From positions 507 to 64,506 of the forward strand of contig CAZLCI010000002.1 in assembly GCA_964558115.1 (NCBI GenBank): a stretch of DNA of 64,000 nt. Reading direction: 5' to 3'. The stretch is from an uncultured Nitrospinaceae bacterium. Lineage in GTDB: Bacteria > UBA8248. Position 1 is the first letter of the stretch, and every line of letters begins with the position of its first letter. The notes beneath the pieces were generated by a model. That model was not told where the DNA came from and ran no database searches. It saw nothing but the letters and a program-made list of their open reading frames with translations. Below are positions 2,898-40,983 of the stretch, one piece after another. Made by a program: the position numbers and the translations under genes.

Positions 2898-4499
2898 TTA
2901 CTTTTTTTCATTTTCTTTTTGCTCACTTAAATTTTTGGACCAAGCTAAAAGTGTCGAACGCACTATTTCAGCAAAAAAAGAAGGCGGCAATTCGTCGCTA
3001 CTTACCTCCTTTGCCAGCATAAAACATTCACTGGAAAAATCTTTCATCTCTAAAAGATAGAAGAGATACGCATTCTCTTCTAATTGACAAGTCAATCTTC
3101 TAATATAATTTTTATTTTTATAAAGTTCGCTAGTTGCAGTTTTTATAGTCTGTTCTAGAAGTTCGTTATTTTTTTGTTCATTAATTTTCTTGTCCGTTTT
3201 CAATGAATCTATATAAGATTGAACATAAGGTCTAATGAGTTGATCATCAATATACCAACCACTAAAAACCTTATTACTCAGAAGAATACTTGCATCAATT
3301 CTATTGTCATCTTCCGAAGAACAATTCATCACTTCTGTAACTGGATGAATATCCATATCCCCAGATATTTTTTTCTCAACAAGTGTATTTAGTAATAATT
3401 TAGCTCTAGTAAAACCACTTGGAGGAGTTATCCCTAATTTTTCATTCTCCAATTGCGCTCTTTCCAATAACCAGTATGCATAAGAAATTGGAACTTCTAC
3501 AGTAGTAAGAAAGTCTTGTTCTTCTATTTTAGAAAGAAAATTACGAATCTCCTTGGAAGTAGTTTCAACTAGAGATAAATCTTCTATGCCAGATTCAGTT
3601 CTCAAATTAAATTCTGCCAAATAACGACCTTTTGGTTTTTTAGATCGTATGATCCACAATATTTTTCTGCCAGTGCCATCAGTTGAACTACAAATTGCCT
3701 TAGAAATTTCATTTTCCTGAAAAATATTTGAAGTAAGGGATTCTTTTTTAGATTTTTTATTTTTGACATAAACCCCTTTTTTTTCAAGCCGAAAAATACC
3801 CTTTCTTATTAATGACTTAAATTTTTTATCCAAAGACCTCTCATTCAAATTTGCAAGAAAAATTGCAGCATGATTACTACCTAAAGAAACTACTAGATTT
3901 ACTAGATCTGAGGAGAATTTTTGAGATTTCTCAAAAATTTTTTCAAAAACATTAAATAGTTTTTCTATAGACTCAGATTCTCCCTCATTCAAAATTTGAC
4001 GAAAAATAAGAGATTGAGAATGAATAGATAATTTCCCAATACTTTCTTCAAGATCATTACCTTCCTCTTGAGTTAAATTATTATTTAGTAAGAGATGAAT
4101 ATTTTTTGAAATCTCTTCCAAATTATGATCACTTAAGACATCTGGAATAATTGAGGCAGAATCAATAGATAAAATCGTTTCCTTTAGCAATTTTAATTGT
4201 TCTGGTGTCCATTTAAAGGACATTGCCAAATCAAGCAAACTCGGAATAATCTCAGAATTGTTTATTGTTTTTATTGCAAGCAGAGTAGCAGAAACACCGT
4301 TTTCACTGGTGAAATTTAAATGTTCTAACATTCCCTTTAATCCAGAGTCGCCTAATTCCTCGATTTCTTCAATTAAAGGCGCCGGAGCCATTGCATCAGG
4401 AGGCATTGGATTTGTAAAAGATTTTTCCAAAGCAAAAGCTATAGTCCTTGCCCTTTTAAGGTCTTCTCTTATCACTTTATTTTTCTTTGTTTTTTTCAT
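2898..4499 (-). CDS. hypothetical protein, 533 aa, Lys/Glu/Leu-rich, no recognisable domain
   Basis: Long uninterrupted ORF; no motif I can assign, no TM segments, low-complexity charged ends. Confidence 0.45.
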   Translation of the reverse strand: MKKTKKNKVIREDLKRARTIAFALEKSFTNPMPPDAMAPAPLIEEIEELGDSGLKGMLEHLNFTSENGVSATLLAIKTINNSEIIPSLLDLAMSFKWTPEQLKLLKETILSIDSASIIPDVLSDHNLEEISKNIHLLLNNNLTQEEGNDLEESIGKLSIHSQSLIFRQILNEGESESIEKLFNVFEKIFEKSQKFSSDLVNLVVSLGSNHAAIFLANLNERSLDKKFKSLIRKGIFRLEKKGVYVKNKKSKKESLTSNIFQENEISKAICSSTDGTGRKILWIIRSKKPKGRYLAEFNLRTESGIEDLSLVETTSKEIRNFLSKIEEQDFLTTVEVPISYAYWLLERAQLENEKLGITPPSGFTRAKLLLNTLVEKKISGDMDIHPVTEVMNCSSEDDNRIDASILLSNKVFSGWYIDDQLIRPYVQSYIDSLKTDKKINEQKNNELLEQTIKTATSELYKNKNYIRRLTCQLEENAYLFYLLEMKDFSSECFMLAKEVSSDELPPSFFAEIVRSTLLAWSKNLSEQKENEKK

Positions 4500-9381: not shown

Positions 9382-10772
9382 TTTGTTTCTCCTTTTTGAT
9401 TTATTTTTTCAACCCTACAATCCAAAGCTCCATCGGACAATTTAATTTGAAGCAATTCTTGATTCTCTACTTGTTGTATGCTGCGAATTAAGGAGTGATC
9501 TTTTTCCCGATACGTCAAACTATATCCACGTGCTAAAATTGAAATTGGAGAAACAGATTCGAGTCTAAGAATTAAATTTTTTACTTCTAAGTTCTTTGCA
9601 TGGAATATTTTTTCAATACAAATTTCAATTCTTTCAATATATCCCTCCATTGTTTTAACTTTACTTGAATGAAGACTCAAAGGAGAAACAACTCTCAGTC
9701 TAGGCAAAATTGAGAAAACACGATTCCTGAAAACTGACAAGACATACTTGGTTTCTTTTAAAAGATTTTCAAAAAGCATATCAATTTTTTGCTGCAGTTC
9801 CTGAATATACAGAGTAGGTTCTTCTAATATTCTCATCCTCTCATAAAAAGCAACTTCATCTTTTCTGTTCTTTAGAATCATCTTAACGTATCGTTCCATC
9901 TCAGAGGGAAATCTCATGAAACGTTCTAAAATAATATCCCAGTTGCTGCATACTTTTTCAGCAGCCGCAGTAGGTGTCGAAGAAAAATCATCTGCAACTA
10001 AATCGGACAGCGAACTATCAATTTCATGACCAATAGCTGTTAAAATTGGAATGCTACAATTGTCAATAGCCCGAATAACTATCTCATCATTAAATGCACT
10101 GAGATCTTCATTACTTCCTCCGCCTCTAGAAAGGATTATTAGATCAGCAGGAGAATTCATTCTATTGTTTTCTTCGGCAACTAGAAGAGCTCTCTCAATA
10201 GATCTTGGAGCAAATTCTCCTTGGACAAGTGTATGAATGATTGTTAATTCCACGAAAGGAATGCGCATTGATAAAATTGGAAGCATGTCACGTAAAGCTG
10301 CTCCTTCACGACTTGTAACTAAAATAATTTTTTTTGGTCTTAATGGGATTTTTTTTTTCCTTTCCTTAGAAAAAAGGCCTTCTAATTCTAATTTCTCTCT
10401 TAATTGTCTAAATTTTACATCTAAAATTCCTTCTCCTAATGGTTCCAAAGAGAAAATAGATAATTGGAATCTACCCTCCCGCTCAAAAAGAGTCACACTA
10501 CATTTAACCAAAACTCTCATCCCCACTTCAGGAGTAAAATCAAGAGACTTTCTTCTACCTGCAAACATAACTGCATTTATTTTTGAATTAGAATCCTTTA
10601 AAACAAGATATGCATGATTCGATGGATATACCTTCCAACTTGATATCTCTCCTTCGACCAAAATATTAGTGAATTCTTGTTCAAGATGTTCTCGAACTCT
10701 CGAATTAAGTTGAGAAATTGTATATATTTGGGCTGCAAATTCTTTCGTGGAACCTAACAAATCAATATTCAA
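9378..10772 (-). CDS. xseA: exodeoxyribonuclease VII large subunit
   Basis: 464 aa; N-terminal OB-fold (VEGEISSWKVYPSNHAYLVLKD), a central catalytic region and a C-terminal coiled-coil; overlaps xseB by 4 nt. Confidence 0.85.
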   Translation of the reverse strand: MNIDLLGSTKEFAAQIYTISQLNSRVREHLEQEFTNILVEGEISSWKVYPSNHAYLVLKDSNSKINAVMFAGRRKSLDFTPEVGMRVLVKCSVTLFEREGRFQLSIFSLEPLGEGILDVKFRQLREKLELEGLFSKERKKKIPLRPKKIILVTSREGAALRDMLPILSMRIPFVELTIIHTLVQGEFAPRSIERALLVAEENNRMNSPADLIILSRGGGSNEDLSAFNDEIVIRAIDNCSIPILTAIGHEIDSSLSDLVADDFSSTPTAAAEKVCSNWDIILERFMRFPSEMERYVKMILKNRKDEVAFYERMRILEEPTLYIQELQQKIDMLFENLLKETKYVLSVFRNRVFSILPRLRVVSPLSLHSSKVKTMEGYIERIEICIEKIFHAKNLEVKNLILRLESVSPISILARGYSLTYREKDHSLIRSIQQVENQELLQIKLSDGALDCRVEKINQKGETK

Positions 10773-10784
10773 TCAATTATTCCT

Positions 10785-11654
10785 TTAAGTCACTAAAATA
10801 TGATCTTGAAATGCATTTACTGTATTGACCATTAACATAGATATAGTCATAGGACCAACTCCTCCTGGTACTGGAGTTATAGCCGAGACTTTTCCCATTA
10901 GTGATGCAAAATCACAATCTCCTACCAACTTGTCATCTAGTCGGTTCGTACCAACATCTACAACTATAGCTCCCTCCTTTACCATCTCTGCAGTCACAAA
11001 ATTTGCCCTGCCAACTGCAGCAATCAATATATCTGCTCTTTTCGTTACCTCAGCAATATCTTCTGTTCTAGAATGACATATAGTTACAGTCGCATTCTCA
11101 TGTAACAAAAGAATGGATAATGGAAGACCGACTATTTTACTCCTTCCGATTATAACAACATTTTTTCCTTCTATTGGAAAATCATAGAATTTCAATATTT
11201 CAAGTACCCCAGCAGGGGTACAAGATTTAGGACCTGGTTGTTTTAAAGATAACTTTCCAAAGTTTTCACTGTGGAAAACATCAACATCTTTTAATGGATC
11301 AACTTTTTTTAGGATTTCTGTTTCATTCAAAGTTGACGGTAGAGGTAATTGAACAAGTATTCCGTCAATTTTTGAATCCTGATTTAATTTTTCTATCAAA
11401 TCAGATAACTCTTCAAAAGAAACATCAGAGGACAATCTATAATCGTATGTTTCTATTCCAATTTTATCTGCCATTTTACCTTTTAGTCGAACGTAAACCT
11501 GAGATGCAGGATCATCTCCAACTAAAATAACGGCTAAACCCGGAGATCTGCCTGAGGATTCTTTTAATTTTTCAATTCTAGAAACGAGCACTTCTATTAT
11601 TTTGTCAGATACCGGTTTGCCTTTCATTATTAACGTGTCTATCTTTTTATTCAT
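10785..11654 (-). CDS. folD: bifunctional methylenetetrahydrofolate dehydrogenase/cyclohydrolase
   Basis: 289 aa; PGLAVILVGDDPASQVYVRLK and GVGPMTISMLMVNTV hallmark motifs. Confidence 0.9.
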   Translation of the reverse strand: MNKKIDTLIMKGKPVSDKIIEVLVSRIEKLKESSGRSPGLAVILVGDDPASQVYVRLKGKMADKIGIETYDYRLSSDVSFEELSDLIEKLNQDSKIDGILVQLPLPSTLNETEILKKVDPLKDVDVFHSENFGKLSLKQPGPKSCTPAGVLEILKFYDFPIEGKNVVIIGRSKIVGLPLSILLLHENATVTICHSRTEDIAEVTKRADILIAAVGRANFVTAEMVKEGAIVVDVGTNRLDDKLVGDCDFASLMGKVSAITPVPGGVGPMTISMLMVNTVNAFQDHILVT

Positions 11655-14043: not shown

Positions 14044-14521
14044 AATTTCAAAAAAAGACCCTTTGCAAATTCAAATAATTAAAAAAGACCTTATAGAAGG
14101 TTCGGGTATTTTTACACAGGGTGACCCCACTCCTGAGAAAATAGGGTTATTAAGAGGTCAATTTCTTAAATTAACCAATCATCTCGAAATCTTGGACGGA
14201 GACTGTTATGGTTTGCTATCTCCTAACTATAGTTACAAAACCTTTATTCTGAAAAAGTATTTTCAGTCAAATCTTAAAGATTTTACTGCAATCCAAATTA
14301 AAGCAAACTCATACGCAGTAGGCATTCATGAAGGAAGTTATCGAAATTTATCTCAATCGCAAGAAGAGATCTTCAAAAAAATTAAAGAAAAAGGTTTAAA
14401 AAAAACAAACGGCCCTATAGTCCACCGTTTCATGAATGACCCCAGAAAAACTATAATCCAAGACCTTAGAACAGAAATATGGGTAGCAGTAATTCAAAAG
14501 GATTCAACTATATCTTCTTGA
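14036..14521 (+). CDS. hypothetical protein, possibly GyrI-like small-molecule-binding domain
   Basis: 161 aa; no strong motif. The C-terminal …TEIWVAVI… resembles the end of the GyrI-like fold. Weak. Confidence 0.35.
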   Translation: MNKISKKDPLQIQIIKKDLIEGSGIFTQGDPTPEKIGLLRGQFLKLTNHLEILDGDCYGLLSPNYSYKTFILKKYFQSNLKDFTAIQIKANSYAVGIHEGSYRNLSQSQEEIFKKIKEKGLKKTNGPIVHRFMNDPRKTIIQDLRTEIWVAVIQKDSTISS

Positions 14522-17456
14522 TTTTACATAACAGACTTTTCAAATTTGTCTGACCTGAGAACGGATCTCTCTGTTCTTTACTGGTTAGAAAATTAACTGA
14601 ATACCAAGGATTGTAAGGTTGTTTTTCCCCCCATCCAATCGGTATAAAAACAGCATCTTTTCTAATTCCACTATAAAGGTAAGCTCTGGCAGTTATTTTT
14701 CCATGGGCTGACTCAATCTGAATAATTTCTCCATCTTCTATATCTAATTCCCTGGCATGTTCGGGATGAATTTGACAAAAAAGGTCAGGCCACATTTCTT
14801 GTGCTTCCCAAAAATAGTGGGTCCAACTGTGAAAATGTGGTGCAGGAGGCCTTCCAGTTATTAATTCAGTATCAAAACCCCTTTGCCTTAAATCTCTAGA
14901 AAAACTCTTTTCTTCTGTTGAGATTATTTTTGCTTTAGATGTCCCAGTGGGGACATCATAAAATGGAGAAATCACGTCTAATCTTTCATCATTATCTGCA
15001 ATTTCCAGGAAGGGTAAATCTATTAGAAGTTCTGGATCTGAGTAAAATTCGGGTAAAGCAGACAGACCTAAACAATTAAATTTTTCCTCTAACTCTTTAG
15101 TCCAAAACTCTAGTTTTCCACTTTCTGTTGGGAATCTTTTTCCTTCTGGTTGACCTACTGCTGTTGTCCCTTCTAAGTAAAGGGTTTCTTGTTCAAGAGA
15201 ATCTTCATATTTCACTGGATATCGAACCCATCTATAAGGAACTGAATGCAATCGTTTCTGGGTTATTCCACTAAGGAAGTCATTTTTTATACACATTTCA
15301 TCCCAAAATATTTTCGGGTCTTTATATTCTTCCTTAAGAACATCATTAAATCCTAAACGTTTTCCTAATTCTATCCATATCCAGCCGTCAGGCTTCGCCT
15401 CTCCAGGAGGATCTATGAATTTATCAATCCATACAATTCGTCGATCATCATTACTTCTTCCTATTTCTCCTTTTTCAATTCCCGTTGCTGCAGGCAACAC
15501 ATAATCAGCAAATGCAGAAGTTTCATTTTGAAACAACTCAATATGCACTAGAAGATCTAAGTTCTTTAAGGCATCTCTAACATTATTCTGATCTGGCCAT
15601 TGAGCTAATGGATTACTTGAACTTATCATTCCTTTTATAGGATAAGGTTTCTCGTGTTTCATTGCATTAAGCCAACCGACAGGACTCTTTCTTATTTTTG
15701 GTCTGTTAATCTTTTCTCTTCTTTCTAATGGAGCATTTGGGGCAATAGGTGGACCTGCCGTCATATTGAAATAAGCTCCTCCTTTTCGTCCCCAATTACC
15801 TGTAATAGCGCTTACAAACATCCAAGCTCGATTAGTTTGCAATGAATTCATATGTTGATTTATACCTCTACTTGCAAAAATCACACATCCATCTGATTTA
15901 GCAATCTCACTTGCAAGTAATTCAATTTCGTTTTGAGATAAATCGATTATTTCAGATGCCCATTGCGCACTATAATCTTTCTCAAAAATAAAATTTTTCC
16001 ACTCTTCCCATCCTAAAACCCAATCATTGCAAAACTTAATATCATGCAAATTTTTTGAAAAAATCTCGTGAGCTATTGATAAAGCTAATGCCATATCTGT
16101 TCCAGGACGTATTGGCAACCATTTATCTGCTTTACTAGCTGTGACAGTCTGCCTAGGATCAACAACAACCATTTTTGCTTTATTTTTAACTCTCCAATCA
16201 TTAATCTTTCCAAAATAAACTGGGCGTGTTTCAGCTTGATTATCTCCTACATAAAGGTACATCTCTGCGCTTCCAAGATCAGTCGATGTATAACTATTTC
16301 CACTTCCATTTACTCCCTGAGTAATCTGATAAGAAATTGTTTTCCCAGAAGCACAAAATGGGTCAGTACCTTCAATGTTATGAGTTCCCCACATCTGACT
16401 AAATAATCTGGTATAACCTTTCTGAGTAAGAATGCCAGTTCTAGTACCAATAAAAATGGCGAGTGCTTCCGGTCCCCATTTCTCTTTTAACTGACTCAAC
16501 TTTCCAGCAATTTCATCTAATGCTTTCTCCCAAGTAATCTCTTCAAACTTATTTTCACCTCTTTTCCCTACTCTTTTCAGAGGAGTTCGAAGTCTTTTTT
16601 CATTATGATGAAGTTGTAATCCAAATTGTGCTTTAGGACATATTTTTCCCTCTAAGATAGGATCTTCATCATTACCAGTAATTTGCACTAGTTTGTCATC
16701 TTTAAAATGAAATTTTGTAGTACAGCAATTAAAGCAAATATTACAACCACCCGGTTCAATCCTCGTTTTAATCTTACTATCTTTTTCAAAACCAAATGGA
16801 AAATTTGACTCTAATTTTTTAGGTGAAAGAGGTCTATTTTCTAAATCAGACTTTTGAAACCCCATTCCTCTTTGGATATATTTTTTTTCCATTATCGGAA
16901 GAGATGAACTGTAACCTTTTAACCTCTCTAAATAAATTGTCTGCGGTTTAAGCAAAAAACTATCTACATCTTTAATAACTCTCTCTTCTTTTTCAGCGAT
17001 TTCAAGTAATTCTGAACGTTCTCCAAAAGTAATAGCAAATCCTGGGCATACACTAGAACAAGCTGGTTCTAGTTTATGTTCAAGTCTCTCAGAACAAAGG
17101 TCACACTTAACAGAATGATGTCCTTCTTCATCAAAACCCATAGCACTATAAGGACAAGACAAAATACATTCCCCACATCCTGTACATAATTCTTCATGGA
17201 CTTTTACTACACCAGTCTTATCATCTTTTGTTATGGCTTTCGGATTTACAGGACATGATCTAAGACAAGCAGGTCGTTCACAATGTTGACACGTTAACGT
17301 AAAGAAATCTGTACCCGGACCATTTTCATTTCCAAGCCATACAACCTTATTCCTATATGTACCCGGTTTTAGATGATGCTCTTGCTTACATGCTGCCTCA
17401 CAACTTTTACAACCGAAACATCTTTCTAAGTCAATCATTAGTGCTAGTCGATTCAA
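14508..17456 (-). CDS. molybdopterin (MopB-family) oxidoreductase catalytic subunit fused N-terminally to a 4x[4Fe-4S] ferredoxin (FdhB/PsrB-like) domain
   Basis: 982 aa. The N-terminal ~200 aa carry four Cys clusters (CFGCKSCEAAC, CQHCERPACLRSCP, CTGCGECILSCP, CDLCSE…CSSVCP). They are followed by the MopB N-terminal FeS motif (CNICFNCC…C), the molybdopterin dinucleotide-binding regions and a probable Cys Mo-ligand (GTDPFCASGK, NapA/PsrA-like rather than FDH Sec/Cys-His). Confidence 0.8.
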   Translation of the reverse strand: MNRLALMIDLERCFGCKSCEAACKQEHHLKPGTYRNKVVWLGNENGPGTDFFTLTCQHCERPACLRSCPVNPKAITKDDKTGVVKVHEELCTGCGECILSCPYSAMGFDEEGHHSVKCDLCSERLEHKLEPACSSVCPGFAITFGERSELLEIAEKEERVIKDVDSFLLKPQTIYLERLKGYSSSLPIMEKKYIQRGMGFQKSDLENRPLSPKKLESNFPFGFEKDSKIKTRIEPGGCNICFNCCTTKFHFKDDKLVQITGNDEDPILEGKICPKAQFGLQLHHNEKRLRTPLKRVGKRGENKFEEITWEKALDEIAGKLSQLKEKWGPEALAIFIGTRTGILTQKGYTRLFSQMWGTHNIEGTDPFCASGKTISYQITQGVNGSGNSYTSTDLGSAEMYLYVGDNQAETRPVYFGKINDWRVKNKAKMVVVDPRQTVTASKADKWLPIRPGTDMALALSIAHEIFSKNLHDIKFCNDWVLGWEEWKNFIFEKDYSAQWASEIIDLSQNEIELLASEIAKSDGCVIFASRGINQHMNSLQTNRAWMFVSAITGNWGRKGGAYFNMTAGPPIAPNAPLERREKINRPKIRKSPVGWLNAMKHEKPYPIKGMISSSNPLAQWPDQNNVRDALKNLDLLVHIELFQNETSAFADYVLPAATGIEKGEIGRSNDDRRIVWIDKFIDPPGEAKPDGWIWIELGKRLGFNDVLKEEYKDPKIFWDEMCIKNDFLSGITQKRLHSVPYRWVRYPVKYEDSLEQETLYLEGTTAVGQPEGKRFPTESGKLEFWTKELEEKFNCLGLSALPEFYSDPELLIDLPFLEIADNDERLDVISPFYDVPTGTSKAKIISTEEKSFSRDLRQRGFDTELITGRPPAPHFHSWTHYFWEAQEMWPDLFCQIHPEHARELDIEDGEIIQIESAHGKITARAYLYSGIRKDAVFIPIGWGEKQPYNPWYSVNFLTSKEQRDPFSGQTNLKSLLCKIKKI

Positions 17457-17482: not shown

Positions 17483-18262
17483 CTATTTAGATATGTGCCA
17501 CCAGTATATATCAGAGCCATCAGAAACATAACTAGCAAAAAAAGTAACCACAATTATATGAGCAATAAGACCAAGAAAAAAAATAATCGATAAAGATATA
17601 TGAATCGATCTCCAAAAACGAATGAAAAAACTATGTTCAAATCTTTTTCTAATATAAAAGTTTTCTTGACGAACTAAATTATAAAATCGAATGGCAAAAA
17701 TAGGATGACAAAACCAATGTTTAAGATTAAGAGAAAAAGTACCTTCGTTACTATCAGGCTCAAAAGATAGTAATAATTTTTCTTTCTTTGTAATTATCGA
17801 TTCTATTTTTGCTTTGTCATCGGGTTCTATAGTATGAAAAAATCGAATTTTTGAAGAAAAAATTTTTTGATTATTCTTAGAAACATAAAATCTTGCAAAA
17901 ATCCCTAAGAGTGTAAGAGCCAATAGTGCTAAAAGGAGTAATGCTGGTGCATACCTTAAATGACCAGATGAGTGAATTGTAACTAAGACAGAACCAATTA
18001 CAGCTGTTACCACATGACAATTAAACCAAAAAACTGGCTTCTTACTTACGTTTGTTCTCTTAAGGAATAAGAAAACAATAGAAAAAGAGAGAAACAAGGA
18101 ACCAATCACACCGAAAATATAAAGTACCGGAGAACCCGGCATATGCCACATAGATGGCAACAGATGTAAAAATGAGAAATATCCAAACAAACTAAGAGAA
18201 GCTATAGATATAAGATATGTAAGTAACCTATCGTGAATTGACAAAGACTTCTTATTCTTCAT
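17483..18262 (-). CDS. integral membrane protein (candidate membrane anchor/cytochrome-b-like partner of the oxidoreductase)
   Basis: 259 aa; about four N-terminal hydrophobic helices containing conserved-looking His (HLLPSMWHMPG, VTIHSSGH) plus one C-terminal helix. Immediately upstream of, and co-directional with, the FeS-MopB gene. Confidence 0.45.
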   Translation of the reverse strand: MKNKKSLSIHDRLLTYLISIASLSLFGYFSFLHLLPSMWHMPGSPVLYIFGVIGSLFLSFSIVFLFLKRTNVSKKPVFWFNCHVVTAVIGSVLVTIHSSGHLRYAPALLLLALLALTLLGIFARFYVSKNNQKIFSSKIRFFHTIEPDDKAKIESIITKKEKLLLSFEPDSNEGTFSLNLKHWFCHPIFAIRFYNLVRQENFYIRKRFEHSFFIRFWRSIHISLSIIFFLGLIAHIIVVTFFASYVSDGSDIYWWHISK

Positions 18263-32247: not shown

Positions 32248-32718
32248 TTAATGGCATCCGCCTGTGATCCCACGTTTAAGAAAATAACTTTGATGATATT
32301 CTTCTGCAGGCCAAAAAGTAGTAGCTTTAGTTATCTCTGTTACAATTGGGTCAGAAAACTTTCCTGATCTATCGTATTTTTCGCGAGAAATTTTCGCTAA
32401 TTTTTCTTGATCATCCTCAGAAAAAAAGATAGCTGAGCGATATTGTTCTCCTATGTCAGGTCCTTGCCTATTTAACGTTGTAGGATCATGTAAGTTCCAA
32501 AAACAATCTAGTAACTCTTCATAAGTAATTATAGCAGGATCAAATTCAACTCTAACAGCCTCTGCATGACCTGTACTTGAATAACATACTTCTTCGTATG
32601 TCGGATTTTCTTTACTCCCACCAATATATCCTACAGAGGTCTTTAAAACTCCATTTAAATTTTGAAAGGTAGACTCTACTCCCCAAAAACAACCAGCAGC
32701 AAAAATAGCAACAGACAA
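32248..32718 (-). CDS. msrA: peptide methionine-S-sulfoxide reductase MsrA (Cys form)
   Basis: 156 aa; the N-terminal catalytic motif AGCFWGVE with Cys (not Sec) and the conserved E..HQ.Y context. Confidence 0.9.
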   Translation of the reverse strand: MSVAIFAAGCFWGVESTFQNLNGVLKTSVGYIGGSKENPTYEEVCYSSTGHAEAVRVEFDPAIITYEELLDCFWNLHDPTTLNRQGPDIGEQYRSAIFFSEDDQEKLAKISREKYDRSGKFSDPIVTEITKATTFWPAEEYHQSYFLKRGITGGCH

Positions 32719-32753
32719 TTTCAGAACCTCCGATTAAATTATTTTTTGAAGAA

Positions 32754-33845
32754 TTAAAGGTTAACGGTTATCTTTCTTTCTTTGCCTTCAACTACTTCTC
32801 CTATTATAGACGAATAAGTAGAACCAGTAGAAATCAATTTTTGTAACATCTCATTAGAGCTTGAAGGTTCTACGGCAATTATTAAACCTCCAGAAGTTTG
32901 AGCATCATTCAAAACCGCAATCATATTTTGATCTAATTTATCTGAATAAGAGACAAAAGAACGAGTCCACTCTCTATTTCTTTCACCACCTCCAGCTGTA
33001 CCTTGAATCGCATGAGATAAAATTCCTTCAAAAAAAGGTATGTCAGAAAATGAAATCTCAGCATCTAATCCACTTGCATCAAGTATATTGTGAAGATGTC
33101 CTAAAAGGCCAAAACCAGTTACGTCAGTACAAGCATTGACTGGAAATTTCAGCATAACTTCGCTAGCGAGTTTATTAAGGGTTTTCATTGAATCAACAGA
33201 TTCTTCAAAAACACCCTCCTTTAATTTGTTGTTTTTAGATTTAAGCACTCTTGAAATCTTTTTTATGGGACTAGTACTTTTATTGAGATTCGTAATTATT
33301 CCCGTTCCTATTTTCTTAGTCAAAATTAATTTGTCTCCAGGTTTTGCACCGCTATTTAATATCATATCTTTAGGATCTATAACTCCAGTTACAGCAATCC
33401 CGTATTTTGGTTCCTGATCGTCTACACTATGACCACCTAAAATAACAGATCCAGATTCGCGAACTTTCTCCGCTCCACCCGAAAGGATTAAACTTAATAT
33501 ATCCATTCCCAAATTACACGGAAAAGAAACCAAACTCAGAGCAGTAACTGGTCTAGCTCCTATCGTATAACAGTCACTAAGTGCATTTGCAGCAGCTATC
33601 TGGCCAAAATCAAAGGGGTCATCAACAATTGGAGTGAAAAAATCTACAGTCTGAACAATTGCCAAGTCATCTCTTAGTTTATATACACCAGTGTCATCGC
33701 AAGGATTAGTCCCATAAATTAAATTTGGATCTACAAATGGTTCAAATCCTGACAGGGCTTTTCTGAGGTCCTCCGGACCAATTTTTGAGCCTCAACCACC
33801 CGCTTTGACCATACTCGTCAAAAAAACTTTTTTTTCATTCTTCAT
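32754..33845 (-). CDS. selD: selenide, water dikinase (selenophosphate synthetase) SelD; selenocysteine form, in-frame UGA at codon 18
   Basis: The ORF-track ORF 32754-33665 begins mid-domain (AIVQTVDFFTPIVDDPFDFGQIAAANA…). Reading upstream in the same frame gives ATG(33845) MKNEKKVFLTSMVKAGG-TGA(33794-33792)-GSKIGPEDLRKALSGFEPFVDPNLIYGTNPCDDTGVYKL…, which aligns with E. coli SelD LTQYSHGAGCGCKISPKVL…[21 protein letters not shown] and places the UGA at the catalytic Cys17 position. A hairpin follows the UGA. Confidence 0.8.
33767..33791 (-). promoter_or_regulatory. putative bacterial SECIS hairpin downstream of the selD UGA
   Basis: The mRNA after UGA reads GGCUCAAAAAUU-GGUCC-GGA-GGACC. A 5-bp G/C stem with a G-rich apical loop starts 13 nt after the UGA; outer GGC…GCC pairing is also possible. 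Confidence 0.45.
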
Positions 33846-34030
33846 TAAAATTAATCCCAAAAAACATATACATAAATATATTTTTATTATCGTAGAAAGA
33901 AAGAGATTAGAAAACCACAAAAATTAAATACCATTCTATTTGCAAAAAAAAATCAAAAGAAATGTTTTTTTTTATTTAATCTTAGTAAAATCAATTTTCG
34001 AAGTTCTTATATAAAAAAGGTAAATAAGAA

Positions 34031-39281: not shown

Positions 39282-39827
39282 TTAATCAGAAAGATTAACA
39301 ATTTTACCGTTAATTTCTAAGGTGTTTTCAATGTCTACAGGGTTTTTCAAAGTCCACTCCGCAAAACAACCACCTTTTGCATTTTTAGCAAGTTTTTTTA
39401 ACTCTGCAGGAGAAGCATCCGAATCAATCGATAAAAAAGAACGAAAACCGTTACAACCGCTCTCAACTGTTCCTTTTAAAACAGAACCTCGCAAGAAAAA
39501 GTCATATTCAATCCTGCATTTTGCTTTTTTAAAAGATATTTTCATCATGTGCGCATACCGCGCAACTTGGGTTAAAAGTCAAAAACCCACACCAAGTGCA
39601 AAATAATTTAACGGTTGTGGATATTCTCCGTCACCTCCCAATCTTGCTGGTTCATCACAATAAATTTCAAAATCTCCACTCTTACCAACTTTTAGTTGTC
39701 CTTTGCCTTCTATAGTTTCCATCTCTGCTACTATTGTGTTGACGTATCCTTGGGTGGGATGTTCTGGCTGATCAATTACTCTCTTTCCTGGAACATTACT
39801 TTGCTCTGCTGCAGTTGTCGGCTTCAA
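39282..39827 (-). CDS. OsmC/Ohr-family peroxiredoxin-like protein with an in-frame UGA (candidate selenocysteine) at the peroxidatic-Cys position
   Basis: Track ORFs 39579-39827 and 39282-39548 are in the same frame, separated only by TGA (39581-39579) plus 10 sense codons. The joined product is …IYCDEPARLGGDGEYPQPLNYFALGVGF-U-LLTQVARYAHMMKISF…AKNAKGGCFAEWTL…. It reproduces the OsmC signature DEPxxLGGxDxGPxPxELLLxALxxC (Sec replacing the first conserved Cys) and has a second Cys about 71 residues later, like the resolving Cys. Confidence 0.65.
39550..39578 (-). promoter_or_regulatory. putative bacterial SECIS hairpin downstream of the OsmC-like UGA
   Basis: The mRNA after UGA reads CUUUUAACCCAAGU-UGCGC-GGUAU-GCGCA. 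It forms a 5-6 bp G/C stem with a GGU-containing apical loop beginning 14 nt after the UGA. Confidence 0.45.
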
Positions 39828-40512: not shown

Positions 40513-40983
40513 ATGAAGTTTTATAAAATATGTTTTTTAGTCATTTTATCCGCTATTTTTCTAGCAAATCCGATCTTTTTGGAATCAGTATATGCACATA
40601 AAGGAAAAAAGAAATCTCGTAAAATGCTTTTAAATTTGGCATTACGACACAGCACGAGATTGGGTCTTAATATATCTCAGATTACAAAGTTAAGAAGTTT
40701 AAGAACAAATTTCAAAAAATCTAGAATAATGAATAGAGCTAAATTGGGAATTATGAGAATAGATTTAAATTTATTAATTCGAACTGAACCTATGAAAATG
40801 AAAGAAATTGAAAAGTTAGTTAAAAAATTGACATCACAAAAAGAAATTATGTGGATGGCTAAAATTGAGACTATTGCAAAAATAAAAAATATTTTGACAA
40901 ATGTGCAATTAGAAGAAATAAAAAAAATTAGGAAAAAACTTCGAAAGAGAAGAATGCGATCTCGGCAAAACAGAAAAAAATAA
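40513..40983 (+). CDS. secreted basic protein, possibly Spy/CpxP-family periplasmic chaperone-like
   Basis: 156 aa; signal peptide, then helical, Lys/Arg-rich sequence with repeated L(T/N)xxQ-like motifs (LNISQITKL, LTNVQLEEIKKI). Weak assignment. Confidence 0.35.
   Translation: MKFYKICFLVILSAIFLANPIFLESVYAHKGKKKSRKMLLNLALRHSTRLGLNISQITKLRSLRTNFKKSRIMNRAKLGIMRIDLNLLIRTEPMKMKEIEKLVKKLTSQKEIMWMAKIETIAKIKNILTNVQLEEIKKIRKKLRKRRMRSRQNRKK

Follow-up and report, generated by a model that had tools for sequence, protein, structure and literature searches.

A full-length selD gene with a predicted selenocysteine codon and a candidate SECIS hairpin in an uncultured marine Nitrospinaceae bacterium

Gene model and catalytic site of SelD

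The window, a stretch of 64,000 nucleotides from an uncultured Nitrospinaceae bacterium, carries on its minus strand a full-length selD gene (selenide, water dikinase; 32754..33845), which comprises 363 codons plus a stop, with a predicted selenocysteine (Sec, U) at codon 18. The minus-strand frame runs from an ATG at 33845-33843 to a TAA at 32756-32754 and has 363 sense codons with a single in-frame TGA (33792..33794), around which the N-terminal translation reads MKNEKKVFLTSMVKAGG*GSKIGPEDL. This TGA, the putative Sec codon, is aligned with the Cys of homologs, including Cys17 of Escherichia coli SelD, and both of its flanks are conserved. By comparison, the program-made ORF list opens the gene at a spurious TTG start (33663..33665, minus strand), which is codon 61 of the full frame. 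The resulting call (TTG 33665..32754, 303 aa) starts mid-domain and is short by 60 codons, just as the first-pass annotation had pointed out. The annotated selD product should be lengthened from 303 to 363 aa, and its residue 18 given as Sec.

The start codon, ATG 33843..33845 on the minus strand, corresponds to an aligned Met in relatives that marks the limit of protein conservation. Upstream of the TGA, the conserved segment KV.LT.MVKAGG reaches this Met in all relatives and nothing is conserved beyond it; in two of them (L084 and L086), stop codons lie directly upstream of the aligned Met. Compared to L084, codons 19-60 contain 17 synonymous and two nonsynonymous changes, and codons 1-17 contain three and two, respectively. 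As conservation ends at the aligned Met and the substitutions are of the coding type, ATG 33845 is assigned as the start and the 5' extension is coding throughout. The earlier assignment of the N-terminal extension to SelD is borne out by this coding-type evolution and by a family profile match that begins at residue 9. The alternative named with it, a true start at TTG 33665 with no conserved extension, fails, for the extension is conserved up to ATG 33845.

The 363-aa protein was profiled with Cys in place of the TGA. It matches the NCBIfam model TIGR00476 (selD) at 341.3 bits (cutoff 125) over residues 9-329, the match beginning upstream of the TGA, and NF002098 at 301.8 bits against a cutoff of 299. 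The best match among solved structures is E. coli SelD (PDB 3U0O), with an E-value of 3.5e-62 over residues 4-355, in which U18 falls on Cys17 and K21 on Lys20. The first-pass annotation had placed the UGA exactly at the catalytic Cys17, and the alignment of codon 18 with Cys17 of 3U0O and with the Cys of full-length homologs agrees with it, as does the family-wide comparison of the full translation that it had called for. The glycine-rich catalytic loop is present, with GG-U-GSK aligned to GAG-C17-GC-K20 of E. coli and to GGCGSK of full-length homologs. All homologs have the AIRS and AIRS_C architecture (PF00586 and PF02769), and the invariant columns D68, D75, N87, D91, H139, D143, K147 and D241 are all kept in the window protein. 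In a database of 5.8 billion proteins, full-length relatives of ~50-56% identity have Cys at the site, LTSLVKAGGCGSKIGP. All of the nearest relatives (63-94% identity) have lengths of 297-342 aa and start at assorted points just past the TGA, a pattern typical of selenoprotein genes that gene callers have cut short.

The TGA is found at the aligned codon in all eight recovered clade relatives (L001, L081-L084 and L086-L088; ~60-99% amino-acid identity), followed in each by the same GGUCCGGAGGACC. In a wider sample of 80 genome loci among the matches listed, 68 could be placed at this codon, where 44 have TGA and 24 have TGC or TGT. The recurrence of the TGA in eight independently assembled relatives leaves a sequencing error at 33792-33794, which had been named as a possible refutation, without support. 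From these comparisons, the product of the locus is very probably a full-length selenophosphate synthetase (SelD) of the Sec type, a predicted selenoprotein.

Directly downstream of selD, on the same strand and after a 35-nt gap, lies msrA (32248-32718), of the Cys type with a GCFWG motif. The selD-msrA order recurs in L083 (msrA at 3933-4418) and L086 (msrA at 11029-11496), and, together with an upstream block of 2-hydroxyacid dehydrogenase, acyl-CoA dehydrogenase and CoA-transferase genes, it is kept in relatives down to 65% identity. L087 and L088 also have a second AIRS/AIRS_C gene of 348 aa (14739-15785, minus strand), 3.7 kb downstream of the Sec-type selD, which could be a paralog (a Cys-type SelD, ThiL or HypE-like). 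Elsewhere in the window, the minus strand at 14508-17456 encodes a 982-aa molybdopterin oxidoreductase to which a 4Fe-4S ferredoxin-like domain is fused at the N-terminus. It resembles the formate dehydrogenase alpha subunit (314 bits), far under every NCBIfam cutoff, and is ruled out as a Sec-type FdhA by having no in-frame TGA. Three ORFs of 533, 259 and 156 aa (2898-4499 and 17483-18262 on the minus strand, 40513-40983 on the plus strand) gave no Pfam or NCBIfam match.

Candidate SECIS hairpin downstream of codon 18

Downstream of the TGA, the minus strand can fold into an apical hairpin, GGUCC-GGA-GGACC (33767..33779), with a stem of 5 bp and a GGA loop after a 12-nt spacer. The stem thus begins 13 nt after the UGA and ends in a small apical loop with a G, as described by the published selenoprotein criterion (PMC1088965). 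A weak outer stem, GGCU 33791-33788 paired with AGCC 33759-33756 (33756..33791, minus strand), appears in both the minimum-free-energy and the centroid folds and is tentatively proposed; in L001 and L086 the outer stem is stronger (7-8 bp) and in another register. Thermodynamic stability does not set the hairpin above chance, with z-scores of +0.2 to -1.4 against shuffles, and resampling of synonymous codons with G-U pairs allowed gave P=0.086. Searches against Rfam returned no relevant family for the whole window at the gathering threshold, and no bacterial SECIS match for 33600-33900 at E<=10.

The hairpin is partly imposed by the conserved peptide GPEDL. Every sequenced member of the window's clade retains both the TGA and the hairpin. 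The stem is built from codons that are rare in this genome of 35% GC (CCG 0.11, GAG 0.24, GAC 0.19 and CTC 0.05), and those of the outer stem are also rare (GGC and GCC, 0.08 each). Codon identity at conserved residues was compared with three relatives of 61-65% GC and 60-65% amino-acid identity. Across the TGA and the ten-codon region, 9/10 such codons are identical in L086 (63% GC), against 22% elsewhere in the gene (p=1.7e-5); the same measure gave 7/10 against 26% for L001 (p=6e-3) and 6/10 against 17% for L087 (p=4e-3). Among the sampled selD genes, a complete hairpin in one of three fixed registers is present in 29 of 50 unique Sec-type segments and absent from all 23 Cys-type segments, and cells of the window's register pair in 75.6% of cases in the 50 Sec-type genes compared to 41.7% in the 23 Cys-type genes. 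Strict compensatory changes among the Sec-type genes are few (six cells), and the observed score was reached by 7/500 shuffles. The structural support for the hairpin is mainly a nucleotide-level constraint beyond the protein, with little covariation.

A covariance model, R1, was built from nine distant Sec-type selD genes, leaving out the window's clade. Searching the 64 kb with R1 gave a single significant match, which covers the TGA and the SECIS region (33794-33759, minus strand; 32.4 bits, E about 1.6e-6), and the next-best match in the window scored 13.9 bits. Members of the window's clade scored 28.6-34.2 bits, compared to 9.4-17 bits at the homologous sites of Cys-type selD genes. A weak second match at 10-32 on the plus strand, which resembles the SelD U-A-C-K-I motif, is attributed to chance, since the plus strand is non-coding there and the minus strand carries the 3' part of an rlmN gene. 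Altogether, comparison with other selD genes, not stability, supports the hairpin as a putative bacterial SECIS. The hairpin noted 13 nt downstream in the first-pass annotation is present and specific to Sec-type genes, and the SECIS-type model search it had suggested has its only significant match at this site.

The same apical register, UGA followed by 12 nt and GGUCC-NNN-GGACC, is common to the window, Acetomicrobium mobile and two Bacillales loci (L009 and L021). In BSepDB, the 'canonical SECIS' of Acetomicrobium mobile SelD is given as UGA...GGUCC-GGC-GGACC, which is exactly the register of the window (PMC13326102). Across the 48 nt following the Sec codon in loci L001-L080, the hairpins of Sec-type selD genes fall into at least three registers that differ between phyla: 16-20/24-28, 18-23/27-32, and a second hairpin at 28-35/40-47 that encodes LAQVLR. 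Since the registers vary in this way, the selD SECIS would appear not to be one conserved structure across bacteria. Such phylum-specific registers agree with the reported heterogeneity of bacterial SECIS elements (PMC12013277).

The bacterial SECIS defined by experiment is that of Escherichia coli fdhF, in which a stem-loop closely follows the UGA within the coding region. About 11-12 nt separate its UGA from the SelB-binding apical helix, which has a GGUC-type loop and a bulged U in the stem. Like the fdhF element, the stem-loop of the window lies within the coding region, at a similar spacing, and has a small apical loop with a G. It differs in its GGA loop and its 5-bp stem, no long lower helix is evident, and SelB binding is only predicted. 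Compared to the known examples, the host is very AT-rich and the element, with its weak outer stem, amounts to little more than a minimal 5-bp hairpin.

A second candidate selenoprotein gene and selenocysteine use

Scanning the window for frames split by a TGA located a second gene, which encodes an OsmC-related (seleno)protein (39282..39827, minus strand). It comprises 181 codons from a TTG start, with a predicted Sec codon at position 83 (TGA 39581-39579) in the motif GF-U-LLT. The joined 181-aa product matches NCBIfam NF041052 (OsmC_like_Se) over the whole profile at 167.2 bits (cutoff 95), and the Pfam OsmC match runs across the TGA. Homologs have GFCLLTQ where the window gene has GF-U-LLTQ, and the TGA is kept in L081 and L089. 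The gene shares both its UXXT motif (U-L-L-T) and its fold family with the OsmC-like selenoproteins known from the Sargasso Sea (NF041052), among which it is an ordinary member; the UXXT motif was described for this family in the Sargasso Sea selenoproteome (PMC1088965). The two small ORFs called at 39282-39827 should be annotated as a single gene for an OsmC-like selenoprotein. The remaining TGA-split frames in the window were rejected as selenoproteins, being adjacent genes or short upstream extensions.

Folding of the region past this second TGA gives a SECIS-like hairpin, GU-UGCGC-GGUAU-GCGCA-C (39549..39566, minus strand), with a loop that starts with GGU. The hairpin is conserved in L089 and uses very rare codons (CGG, 0.02 of Arg; GCG, 0.09 of Ala); like that of selD, it is not distinguished from shuffles by thermodynamic stability. 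In L090, a forest-soil assembly, an OsmC-like homolog has TGG (Trp) at the Sec/Cys site, at about position 472, and retains the hairpin sequence GCGCGGUACGCGC, which may be a remnant SECIS after the loss of Sec.

The second selenoprotein gene independently indicates Sec decoding, and the uncultured low-GC marine lineage is likely a selenocysteine user. Such use had been claimed from selD alone together with an expectation of selA, selB and tRNA-Sec. The claim has gained a second selenoprotein gene, and its other part found no counterpart within the 64 kb: neither selA nor selB is among the ORFs and partial edge genes searched, and the window has no tRNA gene of any kind, hence no tRNA-Sec. In four other genomes, a tRNA-Sec lies within 10 kb of a TGA-type selD. 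Exact sequences of window proteins occur in Tara Oceans data, and the 90% clusters to which they belong include entries named as Nitrospinae or Nitrospinota bacteria. In BSepDB, MAGs that NCBI labels Nitrospinota (GTDB UBA8248) have 48-54 selenoprotein genes (PMC13326102), and this low-GC lineage may belong to the same group.

Based on the established bacterial Sec pathway, we propose that translation would start at ATG 33845 and reach the UGA at codon 18, where the stem-loop 12 nt further on would act as a bacterial SECIS and recruit SelB with GTP and Sec-tRNA(Sec). Sec would then be inserted into the glycine-rich catalytic loop GG-U-GSK, at the position of E. coli Cys17, and the completed SelD would make selenophosphate, the selenium donor in Sec-tRNA(Sec) synthesis, for SelA. 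SelB binding and Sec insertion are assumed by analogy with that pathway, and selA, selB and selC are accordingly expected outside the window. The self-dependence, or positive feedback, of a Sec-type SelD is an existing hypothesis (PMC1794560).

Alternative readings and relation to known SelD proteins

Three other explanations of the in-frame TGA were weighed. It might be read as a standard amino acid, either Trp or Gly through reassignment, or Cys or Trp through near-cognate readthrough helped by the hairpin. Sec insertion is a prediction from sequence here, selenium is scarce in the open ocean, and the equivalent Sec site of the OsmC-like relative L090 is a TGG codon, all of which lend this reading some weight. 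However, TGA is an ordinary stop that closes 9/45 long frames in the window, and the genes are intact under table 11; the code is thus standard, and reassignment as the code of this genome is ruled out. Moreover, the catalytic residue at this site is known to be Sec or Cys, the downstream element corresponds to those of Sec-type selD genes, several of which have a tRNA-Sec beside them, and a second window gene belongs to a curated selenoprotein family. Decoding as a standard amino acid is very unlikely on these grounds.

We regard as slightly less probable still that selD is a pseudogene or an artefact whose TGA arose by nonsense mutation or sequencing error, a reading favored by the genuine-looking TAA at codon 265 of selD in the sister strain L081 and by the absence of Sec machinery genes from the window. 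Against it stand the recurrence of the TGA in the eight independently assembled relatives (60-99% identity) and in the 44/68 distant loci among the matches listed, the purifying selection on both sides of the TGA, and the conservation of the downstream hairpin at synonymous sites. The least probable of the three is a real start past the TGA, at TTG 33665 or another internal codon, which would yield an N-terminally truncated SelD-like protein and make the upstream frame fortuitous. Gene callers did pick downstream starts, both here and in the closest relatives, but the called starts are arbitrary and differ between relatives (MSGFEP, MDPNL, MGPEDL and LAIVQ). The catalytic Sec/Cys-Lys loop and the conserved DD(T/A)GVY segment, both covered by the family profile, would be missing from a product that starts at codon 61. 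The substitutions in codons 1-60 are of the coding type, and the protein is conserved precisely as far as ATG 33845. Full-length SelD with Sec at codon 18 is therefore the reading we retain.

The sister strain deserves a description of its own. The selD gene of L081 (98.8% identical; locus 10001-10966, equivalent to window 32700-33665) keeps UGA-18 and has a change of TCA to TAA at codon 265 (window 33051-33053). Downstream of it lie three changes at otherwise invariant residues, R289K, T317N and L321V, although these counts are small. The same 204-aa product has entries on two long contigs. Its OsmC-like gene is intact, with the Sec-UGA kept and changes that are mostly synonymous. The L081 selD may reflect ongoing pseudogenisation or loss in part of the population, and the nonsense codon may mean that selD is dispensable there. 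An ongoing loss of selenium use in this marine population is improbable; if it were taking place, and if L081 had no second selD, the strain would offer a natural snapshot of the self-dependent loop of a Sec-type SelD collapsing.

Compared to E. coli SelD (3U0O), a member of the same family, the window protein has an equivalent catalytic loop, with Cys17/Lys20 aligned to U18/K21, but the E. coli gene encodes Cys (TGY) without a SECIS, whereas the window gene has a UGA and a candidate SECIS. Haemophilus influenzae and Aquifex aeolicus SelD are further Sec-type examples. The Sec-type SelD of Acetomicrobium mobile in BSepDB has the UGA at the same position of the catalytic loop and the same AIRS/AIRS_C architecture. 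Amino-acid identity between the window SelD and the named Sec-type examples is only about 45-50%, and the window protein has a Ser two residues after Sec (U-G-S-K), where those examples have Cys or Ala.

Sec occurs in 19% of prokaryotic SelD genes and always at the same position, according to Mariotti et al. (PMC4561486). Zhang et al. reported FdhA and SelD as the most widespread bacterial selenoproteins (PMC1794560), and SelD is often misannotated owing to its Sec, as noted in BSepDB (PMC13326102). The selD of the window is an ordinary Sec-type SelD, and Sec-type SelD proteins, their SECIS elements and their self-dependence are all already in the literature. The value of the locus is mainly practical: the models of two genes are corrected, and an uncultured marine lineage is assigned as a likely Sec decoder. 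The likely use of Sec in such a low-GC lineage bears on the trace-element demand of the ocean.
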